Translations under genes and position numbers: made by a program
NCBI GenBank assembly: GCA_963619285.1
Contig: CAVEWG010000007.1
Span: 1-57,165, forward strand
Reading direction: 5' to 3'
Length of the DNA: 57,165 nucleotides
From: Oscillospiraceae bacterium
GTDB lineage: Bacteria; Bacillota_I; Bacilli_A; Erysipelotrichales; Erysipelotrichaceae
In this document: piece by piece, positions 44,912-49,336 of the stretch
Numbering within the stretch: position 1 is the stretch's first letter
How the letters are laid out: each line of letters starts with the position of its first letter
Notes under the pieces: model-generated
The model's database searches: none
What the model saw: only the letters and a program-made list of their open reading frames with translations
What the model was told of the DNA's origin: nothing

Positions 44912-45211
44912 ATGGATTTAGAGATAAACGAAGAAATTAGTGATGACAAAATAAAAATTAATCTTAAGGGGAAACTAGATACTTCTACTTATATAAGTTT
45001 AGAAGATGAATTAAAAGATATCGATATGTATAAAGACATCACTTTTGATTTTTTAAACTTAAATTATATTTCTTCAGTTGGCCTTAGAATTTTGCTTAGA
45101 GCTTATAAAAACACTTTGGTAAATGGTGGAAAATTAATGGTTATAAATTTTAATGAGACAATTAAAACAATTTTTGAGGAAACAGGATTTTTAGAGTTAT
45201 TGGAGAACTAA
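44912..45211 (+). CDS. STAS-domain anti-sigma-factor antagonist-like protein
   Basis: 99 aa. LNYISSVGLRILL carries the conserved phosphorylatable Ser context of SpoIIAA/RsbV. Confidence 0.85.
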   Translation: MDLEINEEISDDKIKINLKGKLDTSTYISLEDELKDIDMYKDITFDFLNLNYISSVGLRILLRAYKNTLVNGGKLMVINFNETIKTIFEETGFLELLEN

Positions 45212-45212
45212 T

Positions 45213-47651
45213 ATGAAATGGGCATTCATTTTAACAATCATACTTCCTGCTGCTGCATCATTTTTGTTTGATTTCTTAGAAAAACATAGTGGCTTCTCAA
45301 GGAAGCCACGTTTGCACAAACAATTCATCATCGGTATTACCTTTGGTTTATGTTCGGTGTGCGCTACCGAATTTGGCATTTATTATAACGAAGGCATATT
45401 AAATGTAAGAGATGCAGCTCCACTCTGTGCAGGACTATTATTTGGTGCTCCTGCAGGATTGATTGCTGGATTAATCGGCGGCCTTGAAAGATGGTTTTCT
45501 GTTATTTGGAACTATAGTTATTTCACGAAGATTGCTTGCACTATTTCTGCTATTTCATGCGGTGTTAATGCTGGTGTTTTAAGAATAATTGTTTTTGAGG
45601 ATAAACGTCCATCTTTCTCGTTTGGTTTAGCTATTGCGCTAGCTTCTGAAGTATTGCACATGTTGCTTATTTTGGTTACCAATATGTCAGCTATGTCTAG
45701 TGCTTTTGATTATGTTTCATACTTAGCTTTGCCAATGATATTGTTAACTACTATATCGGTTGGTTTGTCTTTTGTGGCAGTTGGCAAAAGAATTATTCAC
45801 AATGTTACTCCTCGTCCTATGATTCATGATTTCGCAAACGCTTTATTTATTGCGGTAGTGGTTATGTTTGTGGTTTCAGCATCATTAACTCAAGCTATTA
45901 ATGGTAGCTTTGCAAAAAGTGAAGCTAGAGATTTATTAGACTATAATCTTGAAGATATAACTAATGAAATAGATGCTAATGGCATATCTTACGCTATTAA
46001 ACATTGGCGTGTTGGCCAATCTGGAGGTTTGGTAATTTTAGATAGGAATATGGAATTGGTGTCCGCTACTAAAGCCGGTTATCCTTATTTGATTGATACA
46101 ATTCCTGATGTTGATATTGAAAGAAATACTTTCTATGAAATAAAAATAAGAGGTGAAGATACTTATTGTGAATTTAGGGAGGTGGGTATCTATTATGCCT
46201 TTGCTTTTATTCCTTGCCAAGAAGCTGATGTTTCGCGTAATGTTACTTTATATATAATTATTTTCTTGGAGTCTTTGATTTATATATCAACTTTCTTTAT
46301 TGTTTATCAAATATTGAAACTAAAGGTTGTTGAACCTTTGCATAAGGTAAATTCAGGACTTGATAAGATTTGTAATAATGAACTTGATACAGTAATTAAA
46401 GTGGATAATAATGCAGAATTTGCAAGCCTATCAACAGATATAAATCAAACTGTTACGGTTTTAAAAGGGCATATTGAAGATGCGAAAAAGCGAATCGAAA
46501 AAGAATTAGAGCTTTCTAAACATATTCAAGAGACAGCAGTTCCCTATATATTTCCGCCTTTTCCTAAGCGTAAGGATTTTGAAATTTATGCACATATGAA
46601 TACGGCTAAAGAGGTTGGTGGCGATTTCTATGATTTCTATTTTACAAATGATAATCATTTCTGTTTCTTGATTGCTGATGTATCTGGCAAGGGCATCCCG
46701 GCTGCTATGTTTATGATGGCGTCAAAGACTTTGATTAAGGGCTTAGCTGAAAAAGGTATCGATGCCGATAAAGTGTTTGCTGAGACTAATAAAAAACTTT
46801 GCGATAATAATGATGCCGGCATGTTTTTAACGGCTTGGATGGGTATTGTTGATTTAAATACAGGCCATTTAACTTATGTAAATGCTGGACACAATCCACC
46901 TTTACTGTATCGTAAGAATAAGGGGTTTGAATATATCAAAGATAGGCCTGGTTTTATACTTGCGGGACTTGAAACAACTAGGTACAAAATACATGAGATT
47001 GATTTAAATCCAGGTGATGGTATTTATTTATATACCGATGGTGTAACAGAGGCCAATGATATTAATTCACATTTATATGGTGAAGATAGGTTGTATAGTA
47101 AAATTAATGAAATAAGCAATAAAGACACTAAAAATATTTGTTTAGGTATCGAAGAAGATGTTGCTAAGTTTGCGCAAGGGGCTGAACAGTCCGATGATAT
47201 TACGATGTTATGCTTCAAGATGAATTATGCACAATCCGCGAACAATATTGTTGTATATCCTGATGCTAATGCACTAAATTCGGTTAATGATTTCTTATTA
47301 GATAAGTTATCAACAATCAATATTTCTAATAACATATTGAATAAGATTCAAATATGTAATGATGAAATTTATTCAAATATTATGAATTATAGCGGTGCTA
47401 GCATATTAGATGTAAAGTTTGCCTTAAACGACGAACAATTGGTTTTGATTTATAAAGACAACGGTATACAATATGATCCATGTAGTAAAGATGACCCAGA
47501 TACCTCTTTAGCTTTGAAAGATAGAAAAATTGGGGGTCTTGGTATCTATATAGTAAAGAAGATGTGTAAGTCTCTTGATTATAAATATGAGGATAATCAC
47601 AATGTTTTATCTTTAGGATTCGATTTAAAGCGAGGTTTATATGACGAATAA
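45213..47651 (+). CDS. Membrane sensor (5TM LytS-YhcK type) - extracytoplasmic domain - PP2C (SpoIIE-type) phosphatase - RsbW-like HATPase fusion
   Basis: 812 aa. GLLFGAPAGLIAGLIGGLERWF (5TMR-LYT), a further TM pair around a ~130-aa loop, PP2C motifs EVGGDFYDF, LIADVSGKGIPAAMFM, LYTDGVTEA, QSDDITML. C-terminal GGLGIYIVKKMC kinase G-box. Confidence 0.85.
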   Translation: MKWAFILTIILPAAASFLFDFLEKHSGFSRKPRLHKQFIIGITFGLCSVCATEFGIYYNEGILNVRDAAPLCAGLLFGAPAGLIAGLIGGLERWFSVIWNYSYFTKIACTISAISCGVNAGVLRIIVFEDKRPSFSFGLAIALASEVLHMLLILVTNMSAMSSAFDYVSYLALPMILLTTISVGLSFVAVGKRIIHNVTPRPMIHDFANALFIAVVVMFVVSASLTQAINGSFAKSEARDLLDYNLEDITNEIDANGISYAIKHWRVGQSGGLVILDRNMELVSATKAGYPYLIDTIPDVDIERNTFYEIKIRGEDTYCEFREVGIYYAFAFIPCQEADVSRNVTLYIIIFLESLIYISTFFIVYQILKLKVVEPLHKVNSGLDKICNNELDTVIKVDNNAEFASLSTDINQTVTVLKGHIEDAKKRIEKELELSKHIQETAVPYIFPPFPKRKDFEIYAHMNTAKEVGGDFYDFYFTNDNHFCFLIADVSGKGIPAAMFMMASKTLIKGLAEKGIDADKVFAETNKKLCDNNDAGMFLTAWMGIVDLNTGHLTYVNAGHNPPLLYRKNKGFEYIKDRPGFILAGLETTRYKIHEIDLNPGDGIYLYTDGVTEANDINSHLYGEDRLYSKINEISNKDTKNICLGIEEDVAKFAQGAEQSDDITMLCFKMNYAQSANNIVVYPDANALNSVNDFLLDKLSTINISNNILNKIQICNDEIYSNIMNYSGASILDVKFALNDEQLVLIYKDNGIQYDPCSKDDPDTSLALKDRKIGGLGIYIVKKMCKSLDYKYEDNHNVLSLGFDLKRGLYDE

Positions 47652-48168: not shown

Positions 48169-48169
48169 T

Positions 48170-49336
48170 ATGGAAATCAAATTAGAAAACAAAGATGGCT
48201 TAACTTATGTTTATCTTTCTGGAAGTATTACTTCTGGCAATTCAAATGAATTTGAAGATGCTGTAAAAGATGAACCAAAAGAAAATGGTATGATTATCGA
48301 TGCTAAGGACTTGGATTTTATTTCAAGTGCTGGCTTAAGAGTAATTCTTGCGTGTAAGAAAAGATGTGGCGATAAGACTTTTAAAGTAATTAATGTCAAC
48401 AATGATGTAAAGAATATCTTTGATGTCACAGGCTTTTCAGAAATCATGGATATCTCTGGTGCGACAAGAGAAGTAAGTGTTGATGGATGCGAACTAATTG
48501 GCGCTGGTGCTTGTGGTGAGTGCTTTAGAATTGATGACGAAACAATTATTAAGTTGTATTATCCAAAAGTTGGCAATGATGAAATCGAAAGAGAAAAAGC
48601 TTTGGCTAAGAAGGCTTTCGTGCTAGGTGTTCCTACAGCTATCTCATATGATATCGTTAAGTCTAATGGCAGAACCGGTGTTGTTTATGAATTAATTAAG
48701 TCAAAGACTCTAGGCGAACTTATTAGAAATGATTTTGATAATAGAGAAAAATATATCGACCTATATGTTGATGTATGTAAGAAGATTGTTTCAATTACAA
48801 GTGATGATCCCGAAATTCCTTCTTTTATTGACCTTAATAGAGCTGATATTGCAAAAGTTGATATGTTGAGCGAAGATGAAAAGAAATATTTGCATAAGTT
48901 TTTGGATTTAGTGCCTAGTGAAAATACATGTATTCATGGTGATTTAAATATCAACAATATCATGGTTGAAAATGGTGAATGTTGTTTGATTGATATGGGT
49001 GAGTTCTCAACTGGTAACCATTTGTTTGATATTTCAAGAATTGTTTTCTCTATGGAATATGGCAATGCTAAAAAGGGCGAATTTAATTCTTTCTATAAGA
49101 TGAGCAGTGAACAAGTAGATGAAGTTTATAAATCATTTATGGAAAAGTATTTCGGTATGGAATTTGACAAGATCAAAGATGTGCCTGAATTAAAGTGGTT
49201 ATATCCTTTAGCTTGGTTTAGATGTTGTGTATCTATGCTTAGAAAAGATAGATGGAATGATGAGATTCATAATAAAGTACTTGACTTATTCCATAATCAT
49301 TTAGTTCCTTTTGTGGATGAAATTTCACAAGCATAA
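48170..49336 (+). CDS. STAS domain fused to an APH/choline-kinase-like phosphotransferase domain
   Basis: ATG 48170 lies 2 nt after the HD gene stop. The N-terminal STAS has DFISSAGLRVIL. Then G-rich loop GAGACGECF, IIKLY, and catalytic IHGDLNINNIMV...LIDMGEF. Confidence 0.8.
   Translation: MEIKLENKDGLTYVYLSGSITSGNSNEFEDAVKDEPKENGMIIDAKDLDFISSAGLRVILACKKRCGDKTFKVINVNNDVKNIFDVTGFSEIMDISGATREVSVDGCELIGAGACGECFRIDDETIIKLYYPKVGNDEIEREKALAKKAFVLGVPTAISYDIVKSNGRTGVVYELIKSKTLGELIRNDFDNREKYIDLYVDVCKKIVSITSDDPEIPSFIDLNRADIAKVDMLSEDEKKYLHKFLDLVPSENTCIHGDLNINNIMVENGECCLIDMGEFSTGNHLFDISRIVFSMEYGNAKKGEFNSFYKMSSEQVDEVYKSFMEKYFGMEFDKIKDVPELKWLYPLAWFRCCVSMLRKDRWNDEIHNKVLDLFHNHLVPFVDEISQA

Follow-up and report, generated by a model that had tools for sequence, protein, structure and literature searches.

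A partner-switching-type operon with a small alarmone hydrolase candidate and an APH-fold kinase as its probable output

We describe a self-contained signalling operon of four genes, in which two STAS domains, a PP2C phosphatase and an RsbW-type Ser kinase are encoded together with a small alarmone hydrolase candidate and an APH-fold kinase. In the reading that we consider reasonably probable, its output is enzymatic and not transcriptional: the membrane protein g2 would set the phosphorylation of STAS and thereby switch the hydrolase g3 and the kinase of g4. We observed the identities of the domains, their intact catalytic residues, the structure of the operon, the co-conservation and fusion of its genes and the lack of a sigma factor; the four-gene operon is conserved in many gut Clostridia. 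A sigma-type phospho-switch wired to an alarmone hydrolase-type protein and a kinase points to an undescribed control of stress nucleotides.

Operon structure and domain composition

The window, that is, the whole stretch of DNA analysed (57,165 nucleotides), carries the operon downstream of an arginyl-tRNA synthetase gene and upstream of genes for HlyIII and an M29 peptidase. Its features are:

44844–44871, + strand: terminator-like hairpin at the end of the upstream arginyl-tRNA synthetase gene (11-pair stem with 5 GC pairs, then a T-rich tail)
44878–44886, + strand: putative promoter, an extended -10-like element (TGgTATAAT) matching the consensus, 26 nt 5' of the g1 start
44896–44900, + strand: possible ribosome-binding site (AAGGG) upstream of g1
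44912–45211, + strand: g1, stand-alone STAS protein, 99 amino acids
45213–47651, + strand: g2, membrane sensor with PP2C and RsbW-type Ser kinase, 812 amino acids
47641–48168, + strand: g3, small alarmone hydrolase candidate with a single HD_4 domain, putatively of the MixSpo/RelH type, 175 amino acids
48170–49336, + strand: g4, STAS domain (residues 1 to ~100) fused to an APH-fold kinase (residues ~105–388), 388 amino acids
49415–49437, + strand: terminator-like hairpin between g4 and the HlyIII gene (9-pair stem)

The first-pass annotation had placed the four genes on the same strand, with 1 nt between g1 and g2, 11 nt shared by g2 and g3 and 1 nt between g3 and g4, and the coordinates agree with this; the same genes were recovered by independent metagenome gene calls. 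Mechanically, the open reading frame of g4 opens at GTG 48113. We place the start at ATG 48170, since the 388-residue protein that it yields is the form common to homologues and is also reported by independent gene calls. Terminator-like hairpins lie on both sides of the four-gene unit, and the one at 44844–44871 would shield the operon from upstream transcription.

The domain make-up proposed at first pass was recovered in full with Pfam and NCBIfam, all six Pfam domains of g1 to g4 scoring above their gathering scores, and the motifs ISSVGLR in g1, HDTVEDT in g3 and ISSAGLR in g4 are present in the translations. The STAS domains of g1 (Pfam, 3e-11) and g4 (7e-12, residues 3–96) contain the serine motifs YISSVGLR, which is kept in 18 stand-alone STAS homologues, and FISSAGLR, respectively. 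Both match the anti-sigma-antagonist superfamily model TIGR00377 of NCBIfam (56.8 and 53.6 bits; cut-off 53.45), and in pairwise alignment the second Ser of the ISS motif coincides with the Ser of the DSSGLG motif in SpoIIAA (1th8). To judge from these features, both are putative STAS antagonists with a phosphorylatable serine of the kind used in partner-switching systems.

In g2, Pfam identifies a 5TM-5TMR_LYT domain (residues 30–188, 7.9e-24), a SpoIIE/PP2C phosphatase as in partner-switching systems (residues 480–670, 1.5e-50) and a HATPase_c_2 domain of the RsbW/SpoIIAB Ser kinase type (residues 685–801, 6e-11; 42.9 bits against a cut-off of 27.4). The translation holds four Asp-containing metal-binding motifs of PP2C (GGDFYD, DVSGKG, TDG and DDIT) and the GHKL motifs DEIYSN (N-box), DNGIQY and GGLGIY, so that N-box and G-box are present; the residues that we take to be catalytic in these motifs were assigned from established family knowledge. 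The earlier description of a LytS-type sensor with five transmembrane segments holds for the 5TMR-LYT domain but not for the number of segments: hydropathy gives ~8, with a loop of ~115 residues (229–343) between the last two.

The g3 protein consists of a single RSH hydrolase domain (HD_4, 5.1e-16 in Pfam) and is without a synthetase domain; it aligns with only the N-terminal hydrolase part of the RelA/SpoT model TIGR00691 (model positions 1–123 of 687). The generic HD family PF01966 matches the same region as HD_4 below threshold (20.1 bits; cut-off 22). Residues H27, H51, D52, E55, D56, D113, N117, R18 and K19 are invariant in 32 HD-family sequences, and we take the roles of the HD-motif residues to be those established in the structures of Rel and Mesh1. 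The closest solved relatives are Lmo0812 and the RelH proteins of Leptospira and Corynebacterium, the top three PDB sequence matches being 4yf1 (Lmo0812; 1e-46, full-length), 7qoe (RelH_Ll) and 7qoc/7qod (RelH_Cg). The Lmo0812 and RelH structures have been classed as MixSpo (RelH), and hydrolysis of (pp)pGpp was measured for RelH_Cg (PMC10434055). By these best PDB matches, g3 can be grouped with the MixSpo/RelH small alarmone hydrolases, with all catalytic residues kept, and it most likely hydrolyses (pp)pGpp and (p)ppApp in a Mn-dependent manner.

The kinase of g4 belongs to the APH/choline-kinase-like family by profile match (PF01636, 4.2e-08, residues 124–294; 33.7 bits against a cut-off of 23.2) and by its Lys, HxD...N and DxG motifs. 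There are two subfamilies of such kinases, which differ chiefly in the C-terminal lobe; K128, E142, H256-G-D258, N262/N263, D275 and the STAS residues S52/S53 are invariant in both. The best fold matches of the predicted kinase model (pLDDT 89.9) are APH(2''), MTR kinase, APH(3'), choline kinase and amicoumacin kinase, all remote (TM 0.4–0.58, 14–18% identity). The model thus most resembles sugar and small-molecule kinases, and the substrate is probably a small molecule. Two closer assignments were rejected. With 138.4 bits against a cut-off of 228.2, g4 is a relative and not a member of the Fibrobacter paralogous kinase-like family TIGR02172, and its scores for the aminoglycoside-resistance models APH_3p (18.4 against 205) and AphA16 (19.7 against 580) speak against a resistance enzyme.

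Recurrence of the gene set and its output

A STAS-APH gene is present in 59 of the 63 judgeable genome loci in which we found a close HD-gene relative. These 59 encode PP2C and kinase in 45 cases, the kinase only in 5 and PP2C only in 2; in the remaining 7 neither lies within 10 kb, so the regulators there would be encoded elsewhere. At least four gene orders occur (S-TPK-H-SA, H-S-TP-K-SA, H-SA-S-TPK and HSA-S-K), two of them confirmed by independent gene calls and Pfam, and the flanks are unrelated, no Pfam family being found in more than 2 of 103 distinct flank families. Because the set recurs in dozens of genomes with differing flanks, its association is far beyond chance, and the co-conservation of the HD gene with STAS, PP2C and kinase genes, on which the first-pass reading depended, is borne out. 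The evolutionary distances of HD and APH domains correlate (r = 0.65), as shared vertical descent would also predict.

In 10 of the 63 loci, HD, STAS and APH domains form a single in-frame protein of ~576 residues (Pfam-confirmed). This fusion recurs in at least 44 protein clusters, one of which has 1114 members, at identities as low as 53%, and it strengthens the earlier idea that the HD protein, the APH-like kinase or both constitute the output. In an AF2 model of a natural fusion the domains are confident, but the pTM is only 0.54 and the model lends no support to a fixed HD-STAS interface. The stand-alone STAS of the g1 type is absent from many related loci; hence the conserved core is HD plus STAS-APH, and in such loci the STAS domain of the g4-type protein is the sole available substrate. 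Sensor modules vary as well (5TMR-LYT, MatE-HATPase_c_2 and PP2C proteins with other N-termini), so that across loci the inputs are variable and the output unit is constant. The HD gene is a frequent and not an obligate partner, and neither enzyme strictly needs the other, as 22 of 56 sampled metagenome loci (~39%) have STAS-APH without HD, and HD relatives occur on their own in Heyndrickxia, in Caloramator and in a few Clostridia.

No sigma factor is encoded within three genes on either side of the operon in the window. Searches of the window and ~160 related loci with RpoS, FliA and RpoE (phmmer and jackhmmer) found none adjacent, in agreement with the first-pass claim; the cognate sigma factor that is usually encoded with a partner-switching module was thus not seen next to it in any of these loci. 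The sole matches lay in two HD-alone loci or were region-4-like open reading frames 3–4 kb distant in four loci, and no Sigma70 family recurs among the flanks of related loci. These data bear on the classical alternative, anti-sigma partner switching in which the sigma factor would lie elsewhere in the genome and the HD protein and kinase would be co-transcribed cargo. Such an arrangement would fit the match of both STAS domains to TIGR00377 and the name 'anti-sigma factor antagonist' given to relatives in databases, and within the host genome the search for a sigma factor covered the 57-kb window. We nevertheless judge it very unlikely, given the ~160 loci without an adjacent sigma factor and the fusion of the kinase to the membrane phosphatase in most loci; moreover, the in-frame HD-STAS-APH fusion and conservation despite gene-order shuffling oppose passive cargo.

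Proposed mechanism and alternative roles of the two enzymes

In the enzymatic model that we prefer, the polytopic membrane protein g2 would sense a membrane or envelope cue, and its PP2C phosphatase and RsbW-type Ser kinase would act against each other to set the phosphorylation of the conserved Ser in the STAS domain of g4. The same opposing domains would likewise act on the stand-alone STAS protein g1 where it is present, g1 probably serving both activities as a buffer or as a substrate in competition with g4. The state of the g4 STAS domain would then switch a two-enzyme output unit, the g3 hydrolase and the APH-fold kinase. What we infer from this arrangement is which protein phosphorylates which, in what direction regulation runs, what the signal is and on which substrates the two enzymes act.

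Instead of a small molecule, the APH-fold domain might phosphorylate the HD protein, STAS or another protein, which would make the system a pure protein phosphorylation cascade with the small alarmone hydrolase as its single final output. APH-fold proteins do include protein kinases, such as YihE/RdoA; g4 has weak RIO, Bud32 and TCAD9 matches over the catalytic loop, and some loci (for example, L098) combine STAS-APH with a stand-alone STAS only and have no RsbW-like kinase. We regard such a cascade as quite unlikely, because the top structural matches are all small-molecule kinases and the STAS domain is already provided with an RsbW-type kinase in most loci. The concentration of subfamily differences in the C-terminal lobe, which forms the substrate pocket in small-molecule kinases, would likewise argue against it.

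A different division of labour would make the two enzymes a writer and an eraser: the kinase would phosphorylate a nucleotide or cofactor at a ribose hydroxyl, the small alarmone hydrolase would remove the phosphate and STAS would decide which dominates, analogous to long RelA/SpoT with a writer of different fold. We consider this fairly unlikely. It would account for the presence of both enzymes in one chain with STAS between them and for the nearness of the kinase model to sugar-hydroxyl and small-molecule kinases. We know of no APH-fold nucleotide kinase, however, and the fold matches are remote; HD is absent from 39% of the sampled STAS-APH loci, and its close relatives stand alone in Bacilli. 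On the hydrolase side, the known substrates of small alarmone hydrolases include a 3'-pyrophosphate and the 2'-monophosphate of NADPH (PMC9765508), which would favour a writer/eraser pair, whereas members of the same subfamily hydrolyse (pp)pGpp made by RSH enzymes (PMC10434055). The full proposal, in which HD-STAS-APH is a regulated writer/eraser of a phosphorylated nucleotide or cofactor not yet described and membrane sensors act through a phosphorylatable STAS domain to toggle kinase against hydrolase, is in our view unlikely. If true, gut Clostridia would widely possess a second bifunctional signalling enzyme of the Rel kind, one that evolved independently.

Small alarmone hydrolases also serve as antitoxins to toxic alarmone synthetases (PMC7229694), and g3 might by analogy, like ATfaRel, counteract a toxic kinase as the type IV antidote of a toxin-antitoxin or anti-phage module. 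The flanks vary, and one related locus (L158) adjoins phage terminase and capsid genes. We find such a module extremely unlikely: the four proteins have no PADLOC family matches, the operon lies among housekeeping genes in a window of uniform GC content, and a membrane sensor with PP2C and kinase would be atypical of toxin-antitoxin pairs. As Pfam finds a RelA_SpoT synthetase domain neither in the four genes nor in those next to them, there is no adjacent toxic small alarmone synthetase, and assignment as a toxSAS/SAH module was rejected.

Relation to known systems

With the RsbU/RsbV/RsbW and SpoIIE/SpoIIAA/SpoIIAB modules of Bacillus the operon shares three protein families: a STAS antagonist with a conserved Ser, a HATPase_c_2 kinase and a PP2C/SpoIIE phosphatase. 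It differs in that a sigma factor is missing, also in related loci, kinase and phosphatase are one membrane protein and one of the STAS domains forms a single protein with an enzyme. In Vibrio fischeri, SypE is a dual RsbW-type Ser kinase and PP2C phosphatase that acts on the STAS protein SypA, with an output other than a sigma factor (PMC8256260). Like g2, SypE thus unites both activities in one protein; unlike g2, it is cytoplasmic, carries a receiver domain and has the reverse domain order, and the target of SypA relates to biofilm; the system has neither an alarmone hydrolase nor an APH-like kinase. In Anabaena, according to a 2026 report, the glycosyltransferase All4160 carries a STAS domain and is the target of HenR and Alr3423; phosphorylation switches the enzyme, and the candidate kinases reportedly came from a two-hybrid screen (PMC13555669). 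There, too, a PP2C phosphatase and a kinase of the RsbW type act directly on a STAS-fused enzyme, which is a glycosyltransferase as opposed to the kinase and hydrolase here, and the system has no 5TMR-LYT sensor.

The first-pass view that no characterised module is wired in this way agrees with our literature search, which found no description of one in the papers covered, but the principle is less new than it implied, given All4160 (PMC13555669) and SypE (PMC8256260). New here are the HD-STAS-APH fusions and the core of HD plus STAS-APH with variable sensor modules. The MixSpo/RelH small alarmone hydrolases (4yf1, 7qod and 7qoe) match g3 over its full length with all HD-motif residues; the papers on small alarmone hydrolases that we consulted mention neither a partner-switching gene context nor a STAS/kinase fusion, and in contrast to g3 its closest sampled relatives in Bacilli (Heyndrickxia, loci L069/L070) stand alone. 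Long RelA/SpoT enzymes (Rel) have the same hydrolase domain and likewise combine it with regulatory domains and a phosphotransfer enzyme in a single polypeptide. Here the second enzyme has an APH/protein-kinase-like fold and not the RSH nucleotidyltransferase fold, and regulation would pass through a STAS domain, compared with TGS/ACT domains and the ribosome in Rel. Hydrolase and APH-fold kinase might, as a working hypothesis, oppose each other.

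Organization of the operon

The cluster comprises four consecutive genes, g1-g4, encoding a STAS protein, a sensor-PP2C-kinase fusion, a RelA/SpoT-like HD hydrolase and a STAS domain joined to an APH-fold kinase (STAS-APH).

Features of the operon region in the window (ORF listing; domains from Pfam)
44844-44871: terminator-like hairpin 3' of the upstream arginyl-tRNA synthetase (ArgRS) gene
5' of g1: putative TGnTATAAT element
44912-45211, + strand: g1, 99 aa, STAS
45213-47651, + strand: g2, 812 aa, 5TM-5TMR_LYT, SpoIIE/PP2C, HATPase_c_2
47641-48168, + strand: g3, 175 aa, HD_4
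48170-49336, + strand: g4, 388 aa, STAS and APH
49415-49437: hairpin 3' of g4

All Pfam domains of g1-g4 exceed their gathering scores and NCBIfam agrees, which bears out the domain calls of the first-pass annotation. Its junctions also stand in the ORF listing: a 1-nt gap between g1 and g2, an 11-nt overlap between g2 and g3 and a 1-nt gap between g3 and g4, whose start was taken as the ATG common to homologues and to independent gene calls. The sensor of g2 had been read as having five transmembrane segments; Pfam matches a 5TM-5TMR_LYT domain, but hydropathy indicates about eight segments, with a loop of ~115 aa between the last two. The g2 translation contains the PP2C aspartate motifs, which serve the phosphatase, together with the GHKL N- and G-boxes, which serve the kinase. 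As hairpins bound g1-g4 and a TGnTATAAT element precedes g1, the four genes look, by sequence, like an independent operon. The region is uniform in GC content, and Rfam detected no riboswitch or T-box in or upstream of the operon.

Upstream lies an arginine-related trio of arginine deiminase (41881-43014, - strand), tRNA-Arg(TCT) (43043-43118, - strand) and ArgRS (43181-44839, + strand), with a bidirectional terminator-like hairpin by the deiminase gene (43015-43032); a search for a T-box ahead of ArgRS gave none. Judged from their translations only, two adjacent small genes at 40951-41870 encode a membrane protein whose C-terminus bears a CxxC...CxxC motif resembling a zinc ribbon, and a J-domain protein (HPD motif) that is rich in Q, N and Y in its middle part and has a hydrophobic C-terminal segment.

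The statement that no sigma factor is encoded here also held. Pfam found none near the operon in the window. When E. coli RpoS, FliA and RpoE served as queries against six-frame translations of the window and of every related locus, phmmer gave only two matches, both in loci with HD alone; iteration with jackhmmer brought in four more ORFs, region-4-like, that lie 3-4 kb from the module with other genes between. A distal sigma factor as the target of the switch is conceivable but improbable. A defence or phage origin was rejected: PADLOC gave no match, and PHROGs only generic phosphohydrolase and unknown families. Two related loci, L157 and L158, carry an identical module; L157 has transporter genes and L158 has phage capsid and terminase genes ~4 kb upstream (1-3907), which suggests a prophage insertion beside the module in L158.

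Linkage of the HD hydrolase to STAS-APH

Co-conservation of the HD gene with the STAS/PP2C genes had been set beforehand as one of the points on which the reading could be refuted. A pattern-seeded scan of one genome per species recovered at least 76 loci with a g3 relative, onto which the window's domains were mapped by tblastn and a STAS HMM. Among the 63 judgeable loci, with an HD at least 47% identical to g3, 59 have STAS-APH in the same cluster; 45 of these 59 also encode both PP2C and an RsbW-like kinase, five the kinase only, two PP2C only and seven neither. The four-gene cluster with its HD gene is real and conserved, and the reading withstood this check as it did that for an adjacent sigma factor. 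Gene order follows that of the window, (STAS)-sensorPP2Ckinase-HD-STAS·APH, or one of at least three others: HD-STAS-sensorPP2C-kinase-STAS·APH, with a separate kinase gene, HD-STAS·APH-STAS-sensorPP2Ckinase, and HD·STAS·APH-STAS-kinase. Independent gene calls with precomputed Pfam matches corroborate two of these orders.

All-against-all ORF clustering of the 76 loci disclosed no conserved neighbours beyond the module, the sole recurrent flank ORFs being an ABC ATPase and an alpha/beta hydrolase among close relatives; across 103 distinct flank families no Pfam family occurred more than twice, and the flanks are unrelated. Solitary HD relatives are found at greater distance, in Heyndrickxia and Caloramator (39-46% identity) and in a Beijerinckiaceae MAG (29%), and the HDs of three Clostridia loci (47-48% identity) are also solitary. 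MAGs of a single 'cleanbin' project (L002, L024, L028, L032, L033, L036, L039, L045) carry the Clostridia-type module on contigs labelled Methanomethylophilaceae archaeon, Bacteroidaceae, Anaerovibrio, Parasutterella, Sphaerochaetaceae, Coriobacteriaceae or Phocaeicola dorei; such labels probably reflect binning errors and are unfit for use in taxonomic distribution.

A reciprocal, pattern-seeded test from STAS-APH in metagenome contigs gave at least 80 loci, 56 of them judgeable. HD lies directly upstream of STAS-APH in 34 of the 56, including a deep branch with a kinase identity of only 33-35%. HD and APH distances correlate (r = 0.65, Mantel p about 0.001), as vertical co-inheritance alone would yield.

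In 10 of the 63 judgeable loci the HD frame continues without a stop into STAS-APH, and Pfam identifies HD_4, STAS and APH in the 576-aa products of loci L011 and L032. A protein search from one fusion retrieved at least 44 protein clusters that contain all three domains and measure 572-596 aa, at identities down to 53% and with 1114 members in one cluster; the sole name on these proteins in any source is 'anti-sigma factor antagonist'. Because fused, adjacent and shuffled-but-linked arrangements all occur, there is strong evidence that HD and STAS-APH act as one unit. The AF2 model of a natural fusion has confident domains and a pTM of 0.54, and is uninformative about the HD-STAS interface. 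Loci L016 (1305-1923) and L017 (10542-11740) hold an additional stand-alone g4-type STAS between HD and STAS-APH, which may have arisen by duplication or splitting of the fusion partner.

The motif [EN]Y/F-I-S-S-A/V-G-L-R is common to both STAS types. In many window-type loci a stand-alone STAS is absent within 10 kb, so that the only STAS open to PP2C and kinase there is the one on the kinase protein.

The hydrolase and the kinase

In NCBIfam, the RelA/SpoT match of g3 is confined to the hydrolase end, and Pfam finds no synthetase domain at the locus. Against the PDB, the g3 family profile retrieves Listeria Lmo0812 (4yf1, 1e-46), then 7qoe and 7qoc/7qod, followed by Rel N-terminal domains and MESH1. 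The first three of these have been placed in the MixSpo (RelH) family of small alarmone hydrolases (SAHs), for which RelH_Cg (pp)pGpp kinetics are quoted (PMC10434055). Metal-binding and catalytic residues are invariant in the g3 family.

Among NCBIfam models, the g4 kinase shows kinship to the uncharacterised family TIGR02172 without reaching its cut-off, and it falls far short of the aminoglycoside-resistance models. By sequence, the PDB search matched the N-terminus to STAS proteins alone and otherwise gave just a marginal hygromycin kinase hit; for the kinase domain a fold search was needed. The AF2 model is confident (pLDDT 89.9, pTM 0.73), and its best PDB folds, remote matches that are all small-molecule kinases, comprise APH(2'')-Ia, methylthioribose kinase, APH(3'), a choline/ethanolamine kinase family protein and amicoumacin kinase. 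Both kinase subfamilies keep the Lys, HGD...N and D-x-G residues invariant and diverge mainly in the C-terminal lobe.

Kinase and hydrolase could work against each other on a single substrate, a phosphorylated nucleotide or cofactor. Compatible with this proposal are the HD-STAS-APH fusion, the small-molecule-kinase fold of g4 and the known removal by SAHs of phosphates at the ribose 2' and 3' positions (PMC9765508). Lineages with STAS-APH but no HD weaken the proposal, and we consider it unlikely. In one such lineage (L098, L100, L102, L103, L105, L107, L109, L111, L118; for example, L098 6998-8494), STAS-APH is followed 3 nt on by a separate STAS gene; a STAS-APH-STAS fusion, as tblastn had implied, was ruled out by the ORF listing. 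No HD, PP2C or RsbW-like kinase occurs within up to 7 kb on each side (less on shorter contigs), leaving the APH-fold domain as the only kinase encoded nearby. More distant STAS-APH proteins (kinase identity 30-43%) are solitary in L136, L145, L150 and other contigs, the other module genes being absent within 7 kb; some of these contigs are presumably JGI freshwater-lake metagenome records, going by their record ids.

Variable inputs, the proposed switch and its precedents

Related clusters swap or add sensors while the output is constant.

Input genes of related loci (locus-internal coordinates)
L159 10177-11580: MatE (MOP-flippase-like) and RsbW-type HATPase_c_2 kinase
L160 9451-11244: the same
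L032 5314-7146: the same
L032 4538-5416: LPG_synthase_C protein (lysyl-phosphatidylglycerol synthase C-terminal domain-like, 1e-25)

The MatE-HATPase_c_2 fusion is an unusual sensor-kinase architecture; its genes adjoin a STAS gene, which follows in L159 and L160, in or beside the HD/STAS-APH cluster. The six-gene cluster of L032 encodes STAS, the LPG_synthase_C protein, MatE-HATPase_c_2, a PP2C-kinase whose N-terminus differs, HD-STAS-APH and one more PP2C, and the LPG_synthase_C gene hints at a membrane-lipid connection. Such varied inputs to a constant output typify fixed-effector signalling systems, and the membrane, flippase-like and lipid-related inputs would fit an envelope cue.

We favour, with some reserve, a membrane-gated phospho-switch with an HD/kinase output. 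In g2, the PP2C domain and the RsbW-type kinase domain would act in opposition to set the phosphorylation of the g4 STAS serine and, where g1 is present, of its STAS serine, and the STAS phosphorylation state would switch the output unit. Post-translational regulation of SAHs, and why bacteria retain them, are largely open; the only remark on regulation in the SAH literature is that interacting regulators may exist (PMC9765508). The module offers a concrete, testable case, in which an SAH is linked, physically and genetically, to a phospho-switch with a membrane sensor, and in turn to a kinase family that counts thousands of proteins in the Clostridia of gut and rumen, unnamed or mis-named 'anti-sigma factor antagonist'. 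If the link is functional, envelope sensing would be connected to alarmone turnover without transcription, and a large orphan kinase family would gain a function.

The first-pass annotation knew of no characterised module wired in this way, which is correct for the output: an SAH coupled or fused to an orphan APH-fold kinase is the new part, not described in the literature searched, where no report links an SAH with STAS or APH. The switch logic, however, is known, and the module belongs to a known kind, the STAS/PP2C/RsbW phospho-switch with a non-sigma output. Its opposed PP2C/RsbW-type control of STAS resembles that of SypE/SypA, where the same logic is experimentally demonstrated (PMC8256260), and its STAS-fused enzyme as the switch target resembles HenR/Alr3423/All4160 of Anabaena, for which such a target has likewise been demonstrated (PMC13555669).
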